From: an uncultured OCS116 cluster bacterium
GTDB lineage: Bacteria; Pseudomonadota; Alphaproteobacteria; Rhizobiales; TMED25
Reading direction: 5' to 3'
DNA: 64,000 nucleotides
NCBI GenBank assembly: GCA_902538185.1
Contig: CACBED010000001.1
Location: 184,285-248,284, forward strand
Within the stretch, counting starts at the first letter, position 1. Each line of letters opens with the position of its first letter. Under the pieces are notes generated by a model, which made no database searches, had not been told where the DNA came from, and was given only the letters and a program-made list of their open reading frames with translations. Positions 2,586 through 62,344 of this stretch are shown here, piece by piece. A program made the position numbers and the translations under genes.

Positions 2586-2774
2586 TTAAAAAAAATACTT
2601 AACGATAATTGATATTAGCCATCCATAGACAAGAGCTCCAAGGATCGCACCATATAATAAGAATTGCACTGGTCCTGGAATTTCCCCTTTTCCTTTATAG
2701 AGAAATAATGATAAATGAATAATCCCCAATATTGCGCCCAGAATGTACCATTTGTAAGTAAATATAAAATCCAT
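2586..2774 (-). CDS. small (62 aa) two-helix membrane protein, translationally coupled to upstream permease
   Basis: The internal ATG at 2774 overlaps the stop of the 477-aa membrane protein as TAATG. The product MDFIFTYKWYILGAILGIIHLSLFLY...LLYGAILGALVYGWLISIIV has two hydrophobic spans. The listed ORF start at 2810 would overlap the upstream gene by 37 nt. Confidence 0.4.
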   Translation of the reverse strand: MDFIFTYKWYILGAILGIIHLSLFLYKGKGEIPGPVQFLLYGAILGALVYGWLISIIVKYFF

Positions 2775-4207
2775 TAAATAACAACAAATTTGTTTGCGAT
2801 TATAACCCATATTGATAATAGCACGCCACCAATAATTGTAAATAAACCGTTCCAGTTCAAGCCCGCATAATGCGGTGTCACACGGCCTAATTTAGCGATC
2901 AATAAAGTTGATGCTGTAAAAGGCGAACTTATCCCTGTTATTGCCCAGCCCGCACACAGAGCTACAATGATACTATTTGGAGGGATCCCCATTATTTCTG
3001 CAGATGGAATTAATGGTCCAATCATATAAACAGCAAGTATGGGATTCATTCCAATTTGTCCACATACGGGCATAATCCATACAATAGCAATGAGTATTAT
3101 GGGAGCTGGTATGCCGTTTAAAAAACTTATGCTCTCTCCCGCAAAGTGATTAATTAAGCTCGATCCCATTATCCCAATAAATGCAGCCATTATCAGCACA
3201 ATAAGCTCTTGCTTGTAATTATATATATCTTCATTGATAAACTCATCAACTCTATGTGCCGTGTTATAAATTATTTTCTTTGTGTTACCTGTATTCTGAT
3301 ATGCAATCCAAATTATACTGTAAATAGGCACAACGAACATAACAACTGGTACCGCATTAAGATTCGTATAGTTCATGAGAGTAAAGATAATACCCAATAG
3401 AGTGATAAAAATAAAAGCTAATGGTATCAAAGTGTGCCACGTTCCTGAAGTTTTCAGGTCTGGGATTTGCATTCTCGATTTAACCTTTCGAGTCGCTACA
3501 TAGTCAAGAAACCAGCCAACAGTTATCAGAATTAGAGCGCTAATAATGCAAGATAGAGCAGCGCCAGTCCATGTCGTATTTGGAATAACGGACGTTGTTA
3601 TGGCTATTGAGAATGTTAGGGGAGACCAACATGTCATGGCCACGAAACCACGTTGAACCGCCAGAAGCATTGCCTTTCTATTTAATGCGCGAGAGTCGGG
3701 GTCTTTTATCTCACTACTGCCTTTCTCAGCCAGGCTACCAAGTAAAGAAATCGAGCCAAAACTGAGTATAACACCAAACATATGCCCCCCGAACGTTAAT
3801 GTAAGGTATCTTATTGAAGTTTTTTGTTCAGCCAGGTACCGCCCACACTTTTCCATTGCGGGTGACGATGAGGCAGCTTTCCTCAAACAGCAAAGCGATA
3901 AAAAAAAGGTTGCTACAAAAGTTGATTTTGTAAGAGCTTCTAGAGATACCTTGGTCCAGTCAGGTAATACAAGAATAGAAACTATAGTCAAAATAGAGCC
4001 AAGGGCTATAAATAATTTTCTCGATAGGGACAGATCATTCAGAGACATTGAGAGGTATAACAAAATTAAGAGAGCCGATATTACATAAGAAATATAAGAC
4101 CCTGACCACTCAGCCATTATGACAGATACCATCACGAGTGGCATAATGAGTGTAGTTATTGTTCTAAACTTTGGCTCAGTATTCTGGTAGCTATTAAATA
4201 TATTCAT
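2774..4207 (-). CDS. polytopic integral membrane protein (about 12 hydrophobic spans), putative permease of unknown family
   Basis: This is a 477-aa ORF that is hydrophobic throughout. I recognise no diagnostic motif. Confidence 0.65.
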   Translation of the reverse strand: MNIFNSYQNTEPKFRTITTLIMPLVMVSVIMAEWSGSYISYVISALLILLYLSMSLNDLSLSRKLFIALGSILTIVSILVLPDWTKVSLEALTKSTFVATFFLSLCCLRKAASSSPAMEKCGRYLAEQKTSIRYLTLTFGGHMFGVILSFGSISLLGSLAEKGSSEIKDPDSRALNRKAMLLAVQRGFVAMTCWSPLTFSIAITTSVIPNTTWTGAALSCIISALILITVGWFLDYVATRKVKSRMQIPDLKTSGTWHTLIPLAFIFITLLGIIFTLMNYTNLNAVPVVMFVVPIYSIIWIAYQNTGNTKKIIYNTAHRVDEFINEDIYNYKQELIVLIMAAFIGIMGSSLINHFAGESISFLNGIPAPIILIAIVWIMPVCGQIGMNPILAVYMIGPLIPSAEIMGIPPNSIIVALCAGWAITGISSPFTASTLLIAKLGRVTPHYAGLNWNGLFTIIGGVLLSIWVIIANKFVVI

Positions 4208-10116: not shown

Positions 10117-10944
10117 TTATTCAAACAGATCGTTATGGGGTAATGGATAATTGGTAATTAATAGCTCTTTACCGACACCCGCATGAGCTTTTTTGATATT
10201 ATTCATTCCATACTGCAACTGCCATTCTTTTTGGTTAAAATCTTTGTATAGATTTGTAATAAATTCACAATTATCGTAGGTAATTAAAAATTGATGTTTA
10301 GTCTTGGATAATACTGCATGAAGACGCTCATGATCAAAGTCTATGTGAAGGTCACCATTTTTTCCGTAAAGTGCGGATTTACTTGCTGAAAAATAGGGGG
10401 GATCTATAAATAAAAATACATTATTTCCGCTCATTTTAATGATCTGCTCATAATCTTCTGAGTACAGTTTGAACTCTTTAATCACAGAATGTGACTGGCG
10501 TAATCTTTCGATAGATGTATGCGTAAACCTTTTCTGAAAGGACTCTTCTGAATAGCCGCCACTATCTGCAATACCTGAAAAAGTTATTCTATTTAAAATA
10601 AAAAAATCAATGCCGCGATCTAAAATTGTTAGATTTGAGTCTCTCCTTTCCATGACCTCCGCGTACAGCTTTTTACCATCTTTATAACTGTCACAAATAT
10701 TAATTAAGCGTAGACATAATTCATCTATATCCTCCTTAACTGAGTGCCATAGCGCATATAATTCATAATTCAAATCATTAGCAATTAGTTTTTTAACCTC
10801 AAAATCCTGTTGAATGTAAAAGCCAAAAGATCCCCCACCAAAAAAAGGCTCTCTATATTCTCTAAATTTTTCAGGAACAAAATCTCTAAGAAAGTTAATA
10901 GCTCTAGACTTTCCACCTGGGTATCTCAAGGGGCTCTTAATCAT
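10117..10944 (-). CDS. DNA N6-adenine methyltransferase, D12 class (Dam-like, alpha group)
   Basis: It has an N-terminal PLRYPGGKSR, the AdoMet motif I FFGGGS, and the catalytic motif IV DPPY (nt 10393-10404). The I-to-IV order indicates the alpha group. Confidence 0.85.
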   Translation of the reverse strand: MIKSPLRYPGGKSRAINFLRDFVPEKFREYREPFFGGGSFGFYIQQDFEVKKLIANDLNYELYALWHSVKEDIDELCLRLINICDSYKDGKKLYAEVMERRDSNLTILDRGIDFFILNRITFSGIADSGGYSEESFQKRFTHTSIERLRQSHSVIKEFKLYSEDYEQIIKMSGNNVFLFIDPPYFSASKSALYGKNGDLHIDFDHERLHAVLSKTKHQFLITYDNCEFITNLYKDFNQKEWQLQYGMNNIKKAHAGVGKELLITNYPLPHNDLFE

Positions 10945-11025
10945 TTCTCAAATTCGTTTAAAGTTATTGGTGCCTGAAGTGACATTATTTATCTTTTGTA
11001 TTTCTTTTTTTGTAGATGGGTTTCA

Positions 11026-11053
11026 TGGTATACTTTTTATACACAGTTTGACA
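11026..11053. promoter_or_regulatory. candidate overlapping divergent promoters between methyltransferase and helicase operon
   Basis: On the + strand there is an extended -10-like TGgTATACT (11026-11034), about 42 nt before the 11076 ATG. On the - strand there is TTGTCA-N16-TATACC (11053 to 11026), upstream of the methyltransferase gene. The two share the palindrome GTATAC (11028-11033). This is pattern only. Confidence 0.25.
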
Positions 11054-11075
11054 ATTTTTAATTACGAGTGATTTT

Positions 11076-13214
11076 ATGGCCCTTAGGGATTGTAAGTTTG
11101 AACGCACCTATAAAACCGATGAAGTCGGCAATGATGGTATGGGCCATTTCTACCAGGCTGCCCTAAAGAATTCAATTAAATGGAGAGCTGCATCGGGCTA
11201 TTTCACCTCATCATTTTTAGAACTCTTCAAAAAAGAAGTTCTGCAATTTGTAATAGATGGCGGTAAGATAGAATTAGTTTGCAGCCAAGTCCTAAAAGAA
11301 GATGATATAGAAAAGATAGAGAATGGCTATCTTTTGCGGTACAGCATTTACAATGAGATAATAGAAACTGTTTTACAGGAAATGATCGATAACGAAGATC
11401 ATAAGGATGCAATCGGGTTTCTTGCAACGCTCATTAAGTTCGAGAAACTTGATATAAAAATTAATTTTTACAAAGACAAGAATGGAATTATGCATATTAA
11501 AAGCGGCTATTTCTCTGACAAAAACAATAAAGATGCCGTTGCCTATAACGGTTCTGGAAATCTTACATATATGGGGGCTGGAGAAGAGGGAAATTTTGAA
11601 ACGCATGATGTATTTAATTCATGGGATGAGACCGATAGGTATCAAGATAAAAAAGAATTGGTTGATGAGTTATGGGAAAATAAAAGGAAAAATCATGAAG
11701 TGATTGATTTTCCTGAGGTTGCCAAGGATCGACTTAGGACCTATTCCAAAAATGATTTAGCAGAGCTAGATACGCCAAATATAAAGAAAAATAATTATAG
11801 TTCTGCATCCCAAAATAGTGATCCTGGGACGAAGGTTGCATTGAAAAAAAGTAAATTAGACAACCTATTTCCATATCAGGAAGAAACTATAGAAAATTGG
11901 TATAAAAATTCACAAAGAGGAATTATTAAGCATGCAACTGGCGTTGGCAAGACCATCACAGCATTAAAGATAGTTTATGATCATATGGAAAAAGGAAAGC
12001 CTGTGCTCATTATTGTTCCAACGGACCCACTGCAAGCTCAATGGCATAAAGAAATAAGAAATGAAATATCAAATGCTTCAGTCGTTCTCTGCGGTGGGAA
12101 GGGTAATAACAAATGGAAAAACATGAATTTCTATCATATGCTAAAAAGTACTGTAAATAACAATCCTGGGCTCATAATAATTAGCGTGGTTAAGACGGCC
12201 ACAGAAAATGAAACATTCCAAAACAAAATATCGAATAATTTATCAGATGCATTGCTCGTCGTCGACGAAGTGCATCACATTGCAACAAAAAATAGAATTA
12301 AAATTTTGGATTTTCAAGTCGAATCAAAGTTAGGGTTAAGTGCAACCCCTGACATATATAACGATGATGATAATTACTACAACAGAATAATTGATTATTT
12401 TGGAGGCATTATTGAACCAAAAATTGAATTAAAAGATGCGATTTGGAAATATGGTAGACTTTCTTTTTATGAGTATCATCCAAATTTTCTATATCTCACT
12501 GAGTCAGAGGAAGATGAATGGTTAAGCTATACAAAGAGAATAAAAAAACTCAGAGGGATAAAAAATAGTAGTAAAAGTGACTCCAATAAAATTGATCAGG
12601 ATATTAAATTGCTACTAATACAGAGGGCGAGGATAGTTAAAACGGCAGAAAATAAAGCCACAGTTATTCCTGAGATTTTGGAAAAGTATTATCTACCTGG
12701 ACAGTCTTGGCTCATTTATTGCCAAGAGGATACACAGTTATCTGAAGCAAAGAGATTAGTTGATGAATGCCAGATAGAATATATTTTTCAGTACACCTCA
12801 AAGAATATAGGTAATAGAGATGTCGAGCTAGATAATTTTAAAAATATGGGAGGGGTTCTGCTTGCAGTGAATTGTCTTGATGAAGGTATTGATATACCAC
12901 AAATCACGCACGCCATTATACTAGCTTCATCAAAGAATCCTCGACAGTTTGTTCAGAGAAGGGGCAGAGTATTAAGAAAGGGAGCCGGTAACAAAAGCAA
13001 TGCCCATATATACGACTGTTTCATTGAGCCAAAGGACAATTACGAAGACTTTGATGGAATTATGCGAAATGAGATGAAAAGAGCAGAGGAGATGGCAGAC
13101 GCAGCCACAAATAAAGACTCATCGTTGCTACTCATCAGAGAAAGACTTGATTTACTTATTGAAAATAGTATAGAATTCTCTGGTCTTTATGATGAGAATG
13201 AAGAAAATTACTAA
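11076..13214 (+). CDS. HKD (phospholipase-D family) nuclease domain fused to SF2 DEAD/DEAH-type (ResIII-like) helicase
   Basis: There is a single HKD motif, MHIKSGYFSD...NGSGNLT (nt 11493-11561). The helicase motifs are I HATGVGKT (11934-11954), II VVDEVHH (12264-12275), III LSATP and VI QRRGRVLR. Confidence 0.85.
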   Translation: MALRDCKFERTYKTDEVGNDGMGHFYQAALKNSIKWRAASGYFTSSFLELFKKEVLQFVIDGGKIELVCSQVLKEDDIEKIENGYLLRYSIYNEIIETVLQEMIDNEDHKDAIGFLATLIKFEKLDIKINFYKDKNGIMHIKSGYFSDKNNKDAVAYNGSGNLTYMGAGEEGNFETHDVFNSWDETDRYQDKKELVDELWENKRKNHEVIDFPEVAKDRLRTYSKNDLAELDTPNIKKNNYSSASQNSDPGTKVALKKSKLDNLFPYQEETIENWYKNSQRGIIKHATGVGKTITALKIVYDHMEKGKPVLIIVPTDPLQAQWHKEIRNEISNASVVLCGGKGNNKWKNMNFYHMLKSTVNNNPGLIIISVVKTATENETFQNKISNNLSDALLVVDEVHHIATKNRIKILDFQVESKLGLSATPDIYNDDDNYYNRIIDYFGGIIEPKIELKDAIWKYGRLSFYEYHPNFLYLTESEEDEWLSYTKRIKKLRGIKNSSKSDSNKIDQDIKLLLIQRARIVKTAENKATVIPEILEKYYLPGQSWLIYCQEDTQLSEAKRLVDECQIEYIFQYTSKNIGNRDVELDNFKNMGGVLLAVNCLDEGIDIPQITHAIILASSKNPRQFVQRRGRVLRKGAGNKSNAHIYDCFIEPKDNYEDFDGIMRNEMKRAEEMADAATNKDSSLLLIRERLDLLIENSIEFSGLYDENEENY

Positions 13215-13235
13215 TAAACTATAATTTTAGAACCC

Positions 13236-13436
13236 ATGACAAATCCGCAGAAAATTACAAGCGTTAGACTTCTCAAGGACTCACTGGAGAAATCAGATGA
13301 GTCTTCAGAGCTTCAAATAAATCATGATCTGCTTGAAAAATTATATGAGATGTTTGCGAATGAAACAACTTATCCTAATAAAAGTCCTATAAATGGACTT
13401 CAACGTATATTGGATACGCATAATGGAAATAAATGA
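13236..13436 (+). CDS. 66-aa acidic hypothetical micro-protein between helicase and ATPase genes
   Basis: The ORF starts 21 nt after the helicase stop. Its stop overlaps the ATPase ATG (13423) by 14 nt. There is no obvious Shine-Dalgarno sequence and no recognisable motif. Confidence 0.35.
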   Translation: MTNPQKITSVRLLKDSLEKSDESSELQINHDLLEKLYEMFANETTYPNKSPINGLQRILDTHNGNK

Positions 13437-15396
13437 AATCAAGCTCGAAAATTGGATGCCGTATTACGGCAAGCAATCTATTCAATTATCTCACGGAAAA
13501 GATAGAAATGTAAATATTGTACTTGCAAGAAACGGTAAAGGTAAAACATCTGTTATGTATGCTGTATTTTGGTGTTTATACGGTAAGGTTATGGATAACA
13601 GGACAAGAGAACAATTAGCCGAAAGTGAATATTTAAATTTTCGTGCTTTGGATGAGGGTGACCTTAGGTGCTCAGTTCAAATCATTTTCATGCATAAGGG
13701 GATAGAGTATGAGTTTACAAGAGCTGCTGATTATTCTGGGGGGGATGCAAAAACCACATTCTCAGCCCGCAGGGATCGAGCCAGTATTAGTAACACTGAT
13801 GCACAATCCGAAATTTTAAGGATAGTTCCAGAAAGAATGGCAAGGTTTTGGTTGCTTGATGCTAAGCTACTAGATGAATATTTCCAGCTTCTCGCCTCAA
13901 AGAGTCATGGGCAAGTCAAAGAATTTGAGAGAGATATTAAAAAAGCATTGGGCTTTGAAGTTTTTCAGACTGCGGAAAATCTGTTCGGTCAATATCATGG
14001 TAAGCTAAATTCCATGGTAAAAAATGACGCAGCTCAGGATAAAAGGAAAGTGAAACTAGTCGATGAACACAACATAGTAACAACTAAGATTAAAAATGCA
14101 GATGAAGAGATAAAAAACCTCGAGAAGATAATAGAAGACAATCAAGTTATAGTAGATCAGGTTAGTAATGCGATTAAAGATGTTCAGGAGCTTGCCGAAG
14201 CGAGTGCTAGTATAAAAGCAAATAAAATAAAAATTGATGAATGTGACAATAAAATAGAGGTATTGGAAGGCGAATTACGAAAATTGAATGATGGCTTGTG
14301 GTCATGTATCTTTGTTGAAGAAAGCAGGGATTTACAAAGTAAAACCCAAAATCGAATTAATCAAATCATGATGGAACAAAATAATTTCCGTGATATTGAA
14401 GCAAAAGTTGAAGTAATAAGAAATTCTTTAAATAATGAATGCTGTGAAATATGTAATTCGCCAGTTAGCCAATCAGCATCAGATTTTCTAAATAGGAAGC
14501 TTACAGAATTGGAGAGTAAAATCAATGTTCAGGATCAGGAAGATGAAAAACATTTTTTGAGAAATACACTAAATATACTAAAAGAAGCTGAAAAAGATGC
14601 TGACATGAAGGTCAAACAAAAGGTAATCGACATTTCAAATGATATTGGAAAGATACATACAGATAGAGTTGGTTACGAGACTCTTTACAATGAAGCGAAA
14701 GACAAAAGAAAAAATTATAACACCAATGATCTCTCCCTAGATCAGGAGATTAAGAAGTTAAAGACAGCCGAAAACATGATTGAGCGATCACAAACCGGTA
14801 TTAAGGATCAAAACGAAATCATAGAAAAGGCTAACGATAGGATTAAAGAGATAGAAGACACCGATTTATGGAAAGCGACTATTGAGAGCAGTGGTAATAA
14901 AAAAAAATTAGACCAATTAAATGCTCTAATATCAATCTTTAAATCTGCAAATAACGCCTATGTAAAGGAATTCGGTGAAGGTATTGAGGATACTGCAAAT
15001 GAGATATTTACAGAGATGTACACAGCAGAGACAGCAAAAAAGAAAATTAACCTGAACAGAAGATTTGGGCTAGATCTATACATTGGAAATAAAAAAATGC
15101 GTTATAGCACAGGAATGGCGGTTATGTCTCTACTCACTTTTTCATTGGCACTCAACAGATATCAAGAATTTGAGAGGCCAATGATTACCGATGAAATATT
15201 ATCTGATCTTGATGATGAACACAAAAGTAGCACCATTAAGTCACTTGCAAATTTATCTAGTCAGGTTCTGATATTTGCCCATAGCGGTACACAAATTGAA
15301 AACATTAAAGAATTGCTGCAGGATAGACTGGGTTATTACTACACAATTGATAATATAGACGAGCATTATAATTCTATCAAAAAAGAGCAGATTTGA
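13423..15396 (+). CDS. Rad50/SbcC/DndD-like SMC-type ABC ATPase with long coiled coil and central CxxC (zinc-hook-like)
   Basis: The N-terminal IKLENWMPYYG...LARNGKGKTS is a Walker A (13525-13548). About 340 aa of K/E/N/I-rich coiled-coil-like sequence follows, with CCEIC at its centre (14440-14454). The C-terminal part has the signature-like YSTGM, the Walker B PMITDE (15181-15195), the D-loop SDLD and the H-loop FAHS. I prefer the ATG at 13423 over the listed 13393 because the ABC N-terminal consensus begins there. Confidence 0.8.
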   Translation: MEINEIKLENWMPYYGKQSIQLSHGKDRNVNIVLARNGKGKTSVMYAVFWCLYGKVMDNRTREQLAESEYLNFRALDEGDLRCSVQIIFMHKGIEYEFTRAADYSGGDAKTTFSARRDRASISNTDAQSEILRIVPERMARFWLLDAKLLDEYFQLLASKSHGQVKEFERDIKKALGFEVFQTAENLFGQYHGKLNSMVKNDAAQDKRKVKLVDEHNIVTTKIKNADEEIKNLEKIIEDNQVIVDQVSNAIKDVQELAEASASIKANKIKIDECDNKIEVLEGELRKLNDGLWSCIFVEESRDLQSKTQNRINQIMMEQNNFRDIEAKVEVIRNSLNNECCEICNSPVSQSASDFLNRKLTELESKINVQDQEDEKHFLRNTLNILKEAEKDADMKVKQKVIDISNDIGKIHTDRVGYETLYNEAKDKRKNYNTNDLSLDQEIKKLKTAENMIERSQTGIKDQNEIIEKANDRIKEIEDTDLWKATIESSGNKKKLDQLNALISIFKSANNAYVKEFGEGIEDTANEIFTEMYTAETAKKKINLNRRFGLDLYIGNKKMRYSTGMAVMSLLTFSLALNRYQEFERPMITDEILSDLDDEHKSSTIKSLANLSSQVLIFAHSGTQIENIKELLQDRLGYYYTIDNIDEHYNSIKKEQI

Positions 15397-15779
15397 TGTA
15401 CTTTAATTTTGAAAAATTTAAAAGATTTGGATTTGATGAGGCCGAAGACGTTATCGTTAAAAAATGGGTTGAGAACAAAATATTTAGTGATGAAAAGTAT
15501 GCTTTTCAGCTTGCATTAGCATTAGCTAATAAACTTCATTTAAAGCCTCAAATTATGAAAAGATTTAAGCAGAAATATGCACCGGGCACTGTGGATTCTG
15601 TTACTGCACTTTGTGAGTTGACAGCAAATAATTACGCTAAAGAATATCCTGATAAATGCGCGCAAGATACCATACATGTACTGGCGTCAATGCTTGCTTC
15701 TGCGGGAGTGAGATATATAGATGAAAATATTATATTAGATGGACAAAATATTGATATAGAAAAGTTGTTCCAAAATTAA
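15396..15779 (+). CDS. 127-aa hypothetical protein, last gene of the helicase/ATPase operon
   Basis: Its ATG overlaps the ATPase stop as TGATG. It looks helical and has no motif I can name. Its size and position resemble dndE after dndD, but homology is unverified. Confidence 0.55.
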   Translation: MYFNFEKFKRFGFDEAEDVIVKKWVENKIFSDEKYAFQLALALANKLHLKPQIMKRFKQKYAPGTVDSVTALCELTANNYAKEYPDKCAQDTIHVLASMLASAGVRYIDENIILDGQNIDIEKLFQN

Positions 15780-15817: not shown

Positions 15818-16306
15818 TTATTCAAATTTAGATTTATATTTCTGAACGATATATTGTATGTCGTCATTCCATTCTATTACAGCTTTCTCCATGCCTCTGA
15901 AATTTCTATTCTTATCGAGGAAACCAATTATTGTTCTCAATAATTTGTTATAGCGCTTTTTAGAATTTGGCTCTCCCCACTCTTGCATATATGCGCCTCC
16001 GCCGATAAAAGGAAGTTGCTGAGTCATTACTTCATCAATAATATATCGCCTGCTTTTCTCTGGTGCACCCATATTTCCAACATTATAACCCATAAGGGAT
16101 AGCAAGCCTTTCTCTGGACGCAAAGCTTTTTTATGGGGGAACTTCATTGCAATTTCTGATCTCCTGGCCCATTCAGATCTTATTATGATAATTTGCTCTT
16201 CGGCTTGTGCTTTCACAGTTGGTTTCTCAAGATATTTAATTGCATTTTCGTATAACCGGAAAATCTCAATATCATTTAATTTCTTAATTTTATCAGCTGA
16301 GATCAT
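15818..16306 (-). CDS. 162-aa basic hypothetical protein, convergent with the operon
   Basis: This is a clean ORF filling the gap between the operon end and the ThDP-enzyme gene. It is K/R-rich and I recognise no family. Confidence 0.5.
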   Translation of the reverse strand: MISADKIKKLNDIEIFRLYENAIKYLEKPTVKAQAEEQIIIIRSEWARRSEIAMKFPHKKALRPEKGLLSLMGYNVGNMGAPEKSRRYIIDEVMTQQLPFIGGGAYMQEWGEPNSKKRYNKLLRTIIGFLDKNRNFRGMEKAVIEWNDDIQYIVQKYKSKFE

Positions 16307-60178: not shown

Positions 60179-62344
60179 ATGAAACATCCTCATCTCTTGT
60201 CAGTACTTTTACCAATAAATATAAATTATCCATTCACATATTCATGCACTGAGGCCTTAGAGATAGGCACCATCGTAAAAGTTTCATTCAGAAATCGCGA
60301 GCTATATGGGGTCGTGTGGTTTCAAGAGGAGCATGTTACAAATTTTGATAGAAAAAAAATTAAGCCGATAATTACAAAAAAAATAGGGGATGATTACATT
60401 TCCCTGCCTGCAGACTTGTTAAGTTTTTTAAACTGGGTTTCGACATATTATATGGTACCCCTCGGGCTTGCTCTAAAAGCGTCATTTAAAAAACAATTCT
60501 TTGAAAAGCAAGGAAAGAAAAAAATTTATTACACGTTTAATCCCTTACACACTTCAAAAATAACACAAAAACAAGAGACGGTGATTGAATTACTACGAGC
60601 GCATGACACACTAGAGAGAAATAGAATAATCTCAATCTCAGGTCTGTCAAATGACATAATAAGAAGAATGATTAGAAATGGTATATTGAAAGAGTCCGAG
60701 TCATTTGTTGAGGTAGAAGAAAAGATCTATCTCGAAACGAATATCGATTTCACTCCAGAGCAAAACTGTGCGATGGAGAAGATAAGCACTTCTCTCAAGC
60801 AACAGAAAGTTACATTAATTGATGGAATAACTGGATCTGGTAAAACGGAGCTATACCTCGAGGCAGCAACCAGAATATTAAGACAGGGACAGCAAGTTTT
60901 AATTATGTTGCCTGAAATAACTTTAACACAAGAGTTTTTAAAAATTTTTAGAAGTCGATTTAAAAATCAAGTCGGGGAATGGCACTCAGGATTATCAGAG
61001 GCTAGACGGAGACAGCTGTGGTTTGATATCTTAAATAAAAAAATTAGACTTGTTGTTGGCGCAAGATCAAGTCTTTTTTTACCATTTATCGATCTCGGGT
61101 TAATTGTCGTTGATGAAGAGCACGACTCATCTTACAAGCAAGAAGAGGGCATGATTTATAATGCACGCGATATGGCAATACTCAGAGCGAAGCAACTTAA
61201 AATAGCTTGCATATTATCTTCGGCTACACCTTCAGTTGAAACCTTTGAAAATATTGTATCAAATAAATATAGTAGAGCCGCGCTAAATAAAAGATTTTAT
61301 GGAACGAAATTACCAACTATAAGTTTTATCGATATGCGAAAGGCTGAAAAAGAAACGAACTCTTTTTTACCTGTCGAGTTGATTGAAGATTTAAAAAAAA
61401 CTAAAGAGAGAAATGAGCAGTCACTCATATTCCTGAATAGGCGTGGTTACTCACCCATGTCTATTTGTGGAAACTGTGGTGTGCGAGTAGACTGCCCTCA
61501 TTGCGATGCATGGCTTGTATTACACAAAAATACGTTGAAATATAAATGCCATTATTGCGGCCATACAGAGGAATCAGACATAAAGTGTAAAAACTGCCAC
61601 TCATCTGATAAAATCATCCAAACAGGGCTTGGAATCGAAAAAATAGATGAGGAGCTTAATAGATTATTACCTGATATGTCGAGAATAATATTTTCTAGTG
61701 ATTATCTACCAAGCTCTGGTTCTGTATCTGCGGCTTTGAGACAAATTAAAGAAAACAAAATTGATTTAATAATTGGGACGCAATTAATATCGAAGGGGCA
61801 TAATTTTCCAAGTTTAACATATGTAGGTATTTTAGAAGCCGATTTTGGTCTCGAAGTTACAGACATAAGGGCATCTGAACGTACCTTCCAAATATTAAAT
61901 CAGGTTTCAGGAAGGGCTGGCCGTGTAAAGCAAGAAAGCAAAGTGAAAATTATGACACACATGCCAGATCATCCATTATTACAATCATTAAAAAACAACC
62001 AAAAGCATGAATTTTATAATGCAGAATTGTCAATAAGAAATTCCTCACAAATGCCACCTTTTGCACGCTTGGTCGCTATCATTGTGAGCTCAAAAAATAG
62101 AAAACTTCTGAATGAATATAGCCAGAAACTAGCTCTCATTAATAATTTTCCAAAAGATGTAGAATTATTGGGACCGATAGAAGCACCAATATCAAGAATG
62201 AGACAATATTACAGACAAAGATTCTTAATCAGAGGACCCAAGAACTGCAATATACAATTATATATTAAAAGGTGGTTGGACTCACTCAAATTACCACCAC
62301 AAATAAGAATAACAATAGATGTAGACCCACAAAATTTCCTCTGA
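60179..62344 (+). CDS. priA: primosomal replication-restart helicase PriA (protein N')
   Basis: It has the Walker A GITGSGKTE, VVDEEHD, and the Cys-rich insertion CGNCGVRVDCPHCDAWLVLH...CHYCGH...CKNC. Confidence 0.9.
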   Translation: MKHPHLLSVLLPININYPFTYSCTEALEIGTIVKVSFRNRELYGVVWFQEEHVTNFDRKKIKPIITKKIGDDYISLPADLLSFLNWVSTYYMVPLGLALKASFKKQFFEKQGKKKIYYTFNPLHTSKITQKQETVIELLRAHDTLERNRIISISGLSNDIIRRMIRNGILKESESFVEVEEKIYLETNIDFTPEQNCAMEKISTSLKQQKVTLIDGITGSGKTELYLEAATRILRQGQQVLIMLPEITLTQEFLKIFRSRFKNQVGEWHSGLSEARRRQLWFDILNKKIRLVVGARSSLFLPFIDLGLIVVDEEHDSSYKQEEGMIYNARDMAILRAKQLKIACILSSATPSVETFENIVSNKYSRAALNKRFYGTKLPTISFIDMRKAEKETNSFLPVELIEDLKKTKERNEQSLIFLNRRGYSPMSICGNCGVRVDCPHCDAWLVLHKNTLKYKCHYCGHTEESDIKCKNCHSSDKIIQTGLGIEKIDEELNRLLPDMSRIIFSSDYLPSSGSVSAALRQIKENKIDLIIGTQLISKGHNFPSLTYVGILEADFGLEVTDIRASERTFQILNQVSGRAGRVKQESKVKIMTHMPDHPLLQSLKNNQKHEFYNAELSIRNSSQMPPFARLVAIIVSSKNRKLLNEYSQKLALINNFPKDVELLGPIEAPISRMRQYYRQRFLIRGPKNCNIQLYIKRWLDSLKLPPQIRITIDVDPQNFL

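Follow-up and report, generated by a model that had tools for sequence, protein, structure and literature searches.

The 64-kb window analysed here, the whole stretch of 64,000 nucleotides from an uncultured OCS116 cluster bacterium, carries an island of five genes at positions 10117-15779, in which a divergent DNA methylase gene is followed by four genes assigned as pbeA, pbeB, pbeC and pbeD. The gene at 11076-13214 on the forward strand encodes a single-HKD PLD nuclease domain fused to an SF2 helicase-like motor. An earlier reading of the letters, referred to below as the original prediction, had treated this product as a standalone enzyme. It is instead the first gene of the translationally coupled operon pbeA-pbeB-pbeC-pbeD, with the methylase gene adjacent. 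By sequence comparison, the product is identified as PbeA, the nuclease-motor protein of PbeABCD, and thus as a member of a known family and not of a new enzyme class. The features of the island are listed below.

10117..10944, reverse strand: DNA methyltransferase of the D12/'Dam-family' fold, M.CbeI-like, divergent from pbeA
10945..11075, no strand: divergent intergenic region between methylase and pbeA, 131 bp, presumed site of both promoters
11076..13214, forward strand: pbeA, 712 amino acids; PLD nuclease domain with a single HKD, then a disordered linker and an XPB/SauUSI-like SF2 ATPase
11076..11741, forward strand: predicted PLD-fold nuclease domain of PbeA, residues 1 to ~222 (domain model and Foldseek PDB matches)
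11493..11561, forward strand: sole HKD catalytic motif of PbeA, H140-x-K142...D148...G159-S160-x-N162 (invariant in 67/67 homologues)
11778..11843, forward strand: disordered low-complexity linker of PbeA, residues 235-256 (model confidence below 50; analogous to the SauUSI linker)
11862..13025, forward strand: SF2 helicase-like ATPase core of PbeA with two RecA lobes, residues ~263-650, with GxGKT, DEVH, SAT and QRRGR (ResIII 263-426, Helicase_C 533-636; motifs invariant)
13236..13436, forward strand: pbeB, small acidic protein, 66 amino acids (assigned by position, size and composition)
13423..15396, forward strand: pbeC, Rad50/DndD-like ABC ATPase with coiled coil and Zn hook (alternative start 13393)
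14443..14454, forward strand: zinc-hook CxxC of PbeC, cysteines C351 and C354 in the numbering of start 13393 (invariant)
15396..15779, forward strand: pbeD, putative divergent DndE-like protein, 127 amino acids (local profile and iterated search)

The pbeA open reading frame (ORF) begins with ATG, and all of the motif strings quoted in the original prediction are present in its product as described. The string MHIKSGYFSD supplies H140, K142 and D148, and NGSGNLT supplies G159, S160 and N162. The low-complexity linker NIKKNNYSSASQNSDPGTK corresponds to residues 235-253, and the motor motifs follow as GVGKT (289-293), DEVH (397-400), SATP (422-425) and QRRGRVLR (627-634). A database search returned 1427 homologues of PbeA, and 67 of these, with 31-75% identity to the query, were aligned to evaluate conservation. 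H140, K142, G159, S160 and N162, together with all of the helicase motif residues, are invariant in 67/67 of these sequences, a degree of conservation that, judged from the alignment, is far beyond chance. The spacing between the HxK and the aspartate is HxK-x5-D in 62/67 sequences, compared to the canonical x4. HxK occurs only once in the entire 712-residue chain, so that there is no second, cryptic HKD motif, and it follows from the single HKD, as had been anticipated, that a PLD active site would need two copies of the domain.

The predicted combination of PLD domain, linker and complete SF2 helicase is borne out by Pfam helicase domains, by a PLD-fold model and by a linker of low model confidence. 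Pfam places ResIII at residues 263-426 (2e-25) and Helicase_C at residues 533-636 (2e-14), with DEAD matching as well, and PLDc_2 reaches 18.8 bits, below its cutoff of 27. Despite this sub-threshold score, the N-terminal domain can be assigned to the PLD fold because its model matches only PLD-superfamily structures. When residues 1-232 were modelled alone, the predicted local distance difference test score (pLDDT) was 89.8 and the predicted template modelling score was 0.87, and all of the significant Foldseek matches in the PDB belonged to the PLD superfamily, with the SauUSI nuclease domain, NgoAVII-R, BfiI, Zucchini and NucT on top. The model therefore confirms a genuine single-HKD PLD fold, and the invariant HxK...GSxN residues speak for catalytic competence. 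The domain had been placed at residues ~1-200; a PLD domain is indeed found there, and its extent is corrected to about residues 1-222.

In the full-length AlphaFold2 model of PbeA, the mean pLDDT is 84, with residues 235-256 below 50, and the chain stops at residue 712 following a short helical tail. The top PDB match of the full model in Foldseek is SauUSI (7CLG, E = 1e-20), followed by XPB helicases. The family profile matches XPB (6e-36) and also SauUSI (9e-25), the latter across residues 116-454, a stretch that takes in the HKD region and reaches the motor. Pfam found neither an SRA domain nor any other DNA reader in PbeA.

The family assignment is based on the PADLOC PbeA model PDLC02707, which matches residues 3-682 with E = 3e-176; PADLOC assigns the protein to PbeA, not to Gao_RL. 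The helicase half of PbeA scores 318 bits with the model TIGR04095, 'DNA phosphorothioation system restriction enzyme', whose cutoff is 600, and the PGAP names given to PbeA relatives are either this same name or 'DEAD/DEAH box helicase family protein'. The helicase families of DISARM, Dpd, type IV CRISPR DinG, Cas3 and BREX were considered and rejected, their models matching the ATPase core weakly and partially. A 721-residue ORF elsewhere in the window, at 60179-62344 (+), gives a weak match (1.7e-6) to a hidden Markov model (HMM) built from PbeA homologues and is presumably an unrelated SF2 helicase.

PbeABCD was described as a phosphorothioate-dependent antiviral system that gives ~10^4-fold protection and in which all four genes are needed (Xiong et al. 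2019, PMC6459918). The H. jeotgali system is the sole one of the family with experimental defence data (PMC6459918). In that work, PbeA was annotated as PLD + ResIII + Helicase_C without a PD-(D/E)xK domain, PbeB as a protein of 66 amino acids and PbeD as one of 152 (PMC6459918). In a later re-annotation, PbeA combines an HKD endoDNase with an SF2 helicase, the small PbeB is fast-evolving, PbeC is an ABC ATPase whose Zn hook is of the 'CxC' type, and PbeD is a cognate of DndE (Rakesh et al. 2024, PMC10853773).

The genes downstream of pbeA in the window conform to this order. A small ORF, with a median length of 67 amino acids, lies between PbeA and PbeC in 71/71 species loci with an adjacent PbeC, and the window PbeB is 62% identical to its counterpart in the close relative L001. 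The preferred ATG of pbeC, at 13423, gives a 14-nt overlap with the end of pbeB, including the stop codon. The pbeC product matches the PADLOC models for PbeC (5e-58) and DndD (2e-25). Its Walker A residues G50-K51-T52, signature residues S572/G574 and Walker B D600 are kept in >=90% of 71 sequences, and the hook cysteines C351 and C354, located at the midpoint of the protein, are invariant in 71/71. The ATG of pbeD overlaps the TGA of pbeC in a shared 'TGATG'. In the PbeABCD family, the gene after pbeC is expected to encode a DndE cognate with two RHH domains. The window PbeD matches an HMM of the main PbeD cluster with 5.7e-13, and a jackhmmer search seeded with it reaches a Pfam-verified DndE at 1.6e-14, in a small database. 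Across species loci PbeC is found downstream of PbeA in 71-78 of 80, and PbeD-like ORFs come after PbeC. An annotated plasmid locus has the same order, an MTase and a helicase being followed by a 'DNA modification system-associated small protein', an AAA ATPase and a hypothetical protein.

Scans for promoter and terminator consensus sequences between 9900 and 16500 gave counts at or below shuffle expectation. Recent horizontal transfer was considered from composition and set aside, since the contrast between the GC content of the island (~0.32-0.38) and that of its flanks (0.35-0.44) is too weak. Convergent with pbeD is a 162-residue ORF at 15818-16306 (-) without matches in Pfam, PADLOC or NCBIfam and with an island-like GC content of ~0.32-0.35; L001 has a PD-(D/E)xK-family gene (L001:8501-9310) in the corresponding place, and the ORF could be a variable accessory component of the island. 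A gene for a LysE-family transporter borders both islands, suggesting a shared site of insertion. In L001, an extra gene of 448 residues without a Pfam match (L001:1226-2572, +) lies between LysE and the methylase; it is not present in the window. Farther away in the window, a 477-residue ORF at 2774-4207 (-), amid transporter and metabolic genes, has no match in Pfam or NCBIfam.

The methylase at 10117-10944 matches Pfam MethyltransfD12 with 3e-38, and its score of 116 bits against TIGR00571 'dam' is marginal to the cutoff of 114.85. Its best solved relative is M.CbeI (7M6B), with E = 6e-80 and 46% identity over 267 residues, and BLASTP against M.CbeI gives E = 4e-90; E. coli Dam matches with only ~5e-5. 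Its sequence contains the motifs DPPY (residue 181) and FFGGG (residue 34). M.CbeI is annotated as a D12 adenine methylase and retains DPPY, and it was shown experimentally to produce N4-methylcytosine (m4C) at GGCC (PMC3425538, PMC8616854). From this kinship, the window methylase is probably an alpha-class N4-cytosine enzyme and the self-marking partner of Pbe, probably not Dam, and its mark is possibly placed at GGCC. The 'Dam/D12 adenine-specific' label on an enzyme far closer to a proven N4-cytosine methylase is a warning for annotation, and the D12/dam label on this methylase subfamily is probably a systematic mis-annotation.

The composition of the window was examined with respect to both candidate sites. 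GATC, the site expected for a Dam-like methylase, is at a normal level with 243 sites observed against 247 expected; the Dam reading was set aside in favour of the M.CbeI kinship. GGCC is depleted, with 83 sites in the 64-kb window against 118 +/- 10 in shuffled sequences; its Markov ratio of 0.78 (z = -2.9) is tied with that of GTAC (0.77) as the most depleted 4-bp palindrome. The depletion could reflect restriction pressure at GGCC, an indirect hint from a 64-kb sample that is small.

The methylase is the only modification gene of the window, and no restriction-enzyme gene was found beside it. The flanks of the island hold metabolic and transport genes; flanking proteins fall into clusters at >=90% identity with proteins of a metagenome-assembled genome labelled 'Rhodobiaceae bacterium', which tentatively points to a marine alphaproteobacterial source. 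No homologue of DndA/B/C/E, of the N6_N4 methylase or of MTaX1 was found in the whole window; the dndCDEA modification module of the founding type is absent, and the methylase is present instead. At least 575 species-representative genomes encode a relative of PbeA, and the census of modification partners covers 79 such loci within their available flanks, as follows.

33 of 79 loci: directly upstream, a methylase of the beta-class N6_N4 type, frequently accompanied by MTaX1 or by a large sigma70-r4 / RNA polymerase alpha-CTD / HARE-HTH protein
17 of 79 loci: DndC
1 of 79 loci: D12-type methylase, co-oriented, 14 bp upstream (L037, Rhodoluna)
28 of 79 loci: no recognised partner within available flanks

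The same divergent D12-type, M.CbeI-like methylase is found in the close relatives L001 (74% PbeA identity) and L082 (69%), and an M.CbeI-like MTase also flanks PbeA in L037, a distant actinobacterial locus (33% PbeA identity). The methylases of these three loci are 45-46% identical to M.CbeI, and the window enzyme is 38% identical to that of L037. PbeA relatives at ~40% identity carry the N6_N4-type methylase. The window PbeA obtains its best scores with methylase-linked relatives and its poorest with Dnd-linked ones; its identity is 35-37% to the best-scoring species-representative loci and, outside its own clade, <=41% to the nearest metagenome proteins.

Both methylase-linked and solitary Pbe systems have been accepted as members in the literature (PMC6459918, PMC10853773), and such systems are often coupled to cytosine methylases (PMC10853773). 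The predicted specificity of the window methylase fits this published coupling, via a different methylase class. The supplementary tables of Xiong et al. leave the methylases near pbeAC untyped (PMC6459918), and we found no literature description of an M.CbeI-like alpha-class methylase partnering a minimal five-gene Pbe island. It is only as a tentative suggestion, and a rather doubtful one, that we consider the island a minimal, methylation-only form of Pbe, in which an alpha-class M.CbeI-like N4-cytosine methylase would have replaced both the phosphorothioate (PT) machinery and the beta-class methylase with MTaX1/HARE-HTH. If this were true, the PbeCD scanner and the PbeA effector could be re-paired with unrelated self-marking enzymes, and m4C, instead of any one methylase lineage, would be suggested as the mark read by the methylase-linked branch.

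Two other gene types were noted near PbeA in the census. Directly downstream of PbeD in 17/79 species loci, mostly N6_N4-linked, is a large protein with Sigma70 region 4, RNA polymerase alpha-CTD and HARE-HTH (e.g. L033:14621-17095, L083:4833-8795 and L087:10612-11925), which PGAP names 'sigma factor-like helix-turn-helix DNA-binding protein'. The two full-length examples examined have 824 to 1320 amino acids, and the gene is absent from the window. GmrSD-type (DUF262/DUF1524) nuclease genes lie near PbeA at L065:14994-17168 and in L074, L080 and L021, three of these loci being Dnd-linked and one without dnd; the recurrence fits a clustering of defence genes in islands.

An alternative reading is that the system in the window is inactive. 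Xiong et al. considered inactivity for 320/553 pbeAC pairs that lack dnd genes (PMC6459918), and in the present case the methylase, located on the opposite strand, would be an orphan or a remnant of a lost type II system, leaving a solitary pbeABCD without a modification partner. We regard this as highly improbable. The catalytic motifs of PbeA, PbeC and the methylase are all intact, no restriction-enzyme gene adjoins the methylase, and the block of MTase and pbeABCD is kept in three contigs with differing outer flanks and again in Rhodoluna.

We consider it probable, with due reserve, that PbeA is the nuclease-motor effector of a methylation-linked PbeABCD ('CxC-type ABC ATPase / DndE-anchored') system, and that it acts as a constitutive dimer licensed on unmarked DNA. 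The methylase would mark the host DNA, probably with m4C and possibly at GGCC. PbeC, the Zn-hook ABC ATPase, and PbeD, the DndE-like DNA binder, would load on and scan the DNA and would provide site recognition. Because PbeA itself has no target-recognition domain (TRD), the choice of site would have to come from its partners. In the PbeA homodimer, two single-HKD PLD domains would form one composite active site, tethered by flexible linkers of ~22 residues to two XPB/SauUSI-like motors that translocate on double-stranded DNA. On unmarked DNA, PbeA would be recruited or licensed, would translocate with ATP, and would nick or cleave the invader or at least block its replication. PbeB, the small acidic protein, may serve as a regulator or an adaptor.

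A different role for PbeB follows from the suggestion by Rakesh et al. that the system might act through abortive infection (PMC10853773). In that case PbeB would be a negative regulator, and its removal or modification by a viral factor would unleash PbeA on the host DNA, the methylase being incidental. A small, acidic and fast-evolving PbeB in every locus would suit such a role, as would the 28/79 species loci without a modification gene within the available flanks. However, most loci carry methylase or dnd genes, and PbeA is accompanied by one and the same type of methylase in lineages that are unrelated. In H. jeotgali, moreover, the host had to be PT-modified for defence, and virus with PT-modified DNA escaped, which is the logic of self/non-self discrimination (PMC6459918). 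Suicide of the host is thus very unlikely as the mode of action.

The assembly of the active site was also envisaged differently in the original prediction, in which cleavage required two helicase molecules to meet. PbeA would then be a monomeric translocase, its half site being completed when two molecules converge on the DNA, as in enzymes of types I and III. One HKD per chain and the fusion of the PLD domain to a translocase-type SF2 motor are compatible with such a collision, and stimulation by two sites or by inverted repeats in SauUSI and MANTIS indicates that site-pair effects exist in this enzyme class. The precedents do not show a collision-assembled site, however. Among the top structural matches, the described single-HKD nucleases SauUSI and BfiI are pre-formed dimers. 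SauUSI, the closest solved structure to PbeA by fold and by sequence profile, is a fusion of PLD and SF2 helicase for which both biochemical and crystallographic data have been published. In solution it forms a stable dimer, as seen by size-exclusion chromatography with multi-angle light scattering, which is held via its PLD nuclease domains with 1970 Å^2 of buried interface and a pre-formed HxK site (PMC3141236, PMC7913695). An unstructured linker at its residues 192-220, about 26 residues, leads to the translocating ATPase (PMC3141236, PMC7913695). MtsD of MANTIS is described as a dimeric, TRD-less PLD-helicase effector that acts downstream of an ATPase/small-protein/methylase complex recognising unmethylated DNA (bioRxiv 10.64898/2026.09.23.753747). 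PbeA, moreover, has no DNA-recognition domain with which to begin translocation, and it is genetically dependent on PbeBCD (PMC6459918). Assembly by collision is accordingly judged distinctly unlikely, and a constitutive PbeA dimer licensed by PbeCD is favoured because of the SauUSI and MtsD precedents. With these proteins and PbeABCD itself in the literature, the earlier description of HKD-helicase fusions as uncharacterised is outdated (PMC3141236, PMC7913695, PMC6459918, bioRxiv 10.64898/2026.09.23.753747).

Several observations weigh against the effector role proposed for PbeA. In the only experimental study of the family, the DNA of the virus SNJ1 stayed intact on Southern blots to 6 h post-infection while its replication was blocked, cleavage by PbeA has never been demonstrated, and pbeBCD without pbeA retained weak, low-level resistance (PMC6459918). 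According to a 2025 review, what the restriction event consists of is still obscure. Within the window, the specificity of the methylase is deduced from 46% identity only, and its gene is divergently transcribed and could be an orphan. PbeB has no match in the Pfam, PADLOC or NCBIfam libraries, and PbeD has no direct match in Pfam, NCBIfam or PADLOC; the hhalign comparison of PbeD with DndE, collinear over the full length, gives E = 3.7e-4 with a weak probability of 36%. As these curated libraries were searched without result for either protein, the assignments rest on locally built HMMs, and the membership of PbeB rests on position, size and composition because no library model matches it.

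The intact viral DNA and the residual resistance without pbeA would both be expected if PbeABCD stopped replication of the invader without cutting it and PbeA were mainly a translocase or remodeller. It should be mentioned, however, that nicks or limited cleavage could evade a Southern blot. The invariance of HxK...GSxN in all 67 homologues, which share 31-75% identity with the query, is difficult to account for without selection for phosphodiester chemistry, and the same reasoning leads Rakesh et al. to favour cleavage (PMC10853773). A purely non-nucleolytic defence is thus considered unlikely, and the invariance of the HKD residues suggests that catalysis by PbeA has been under selection despite the intact viral DNA in the founding study.

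The founding study of PbeABCD saw no cleavage, and yet the HKD residues are invariant across the family. The compact five-gene version described here, with a single small methylase and maybe a simple specificity, would be convenient to reconstitute. Such a reconstitution could bear on DNA cutting by PbeA, on its possible pre-formed dimer, and on the way in which the pair of ABC ATPase and DndE-like protein reads a base modification.

We have compared the system in the window to known defence systems. The likeness to the founding PbeABCD includes the full-length PADLOC match of PbeA, the combination of PLD, ResIII and Helicase_C, the order of the four genes, the 66-residue PbeB, the Zn-hook ATPase and the small, putatively DndE-like protein. 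The founding example is linked to dndCDEA, whereas the window has the alpha-class M.CbeI-like methylase, which also differs from the beta-class N6_N4 enzyme with MTaX1/HARE-HTH that most methylase-linked relatives carry.

SauUSI shares with PbeA the single-HKD PLD domain, the unstructured linker and the SF2 translocase, and it is the best structural match for both the whole protein and the nuclease domain. Its 953 residues include a coupler and a C-terminal SRA TRD (806-953) for 5-methylcytosine and 5-hydroxymethylcytosine, while PbeA has 712 residues and no TRD. SauUSI acts alone on methylated DNA; in contrast, H. jeotgali PbeABCD spares modified DNA, and PbeA depends on PbeBCD. In the MANTIS / Gao_RL comparison, MtsD is, like PbeA, a TRD-less SauUSI-like PLD-helicase. 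The partners differ, MANTIS having an ORC/Cdc6-clade AAA+ MtsA and a DUF3870 MtsB, and the window a Rad50-like Zn-hook ABC ATPase and a putatively DndE-like protein; no Pfam match to DUF3870 was found in the small ORF of the window, pbeB.

The one-HKD PLD fold is also that of BfiI, Nuc/NucT, NgoAVII-R/CglI-R and Zucchini, and in BfiI two protomers form one active site. These nucleases are not fused to a motor and recognise their sites via B3-like DNA-binding domains; in NgoAVII and CglI the SF2 ATPase with which the nuclease works is a subunit of its own. HsdR of type I and Res of type III systems resemble PbeA in the pairing of a ResIII-type SF2 translocase with a nuclease in methylation-based defence. 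Their nuclease is of the PD-(D/E)xK type and they have their own Mod/HsdMS subunits, whereas the nuclease of PbeA has the PLD fold.

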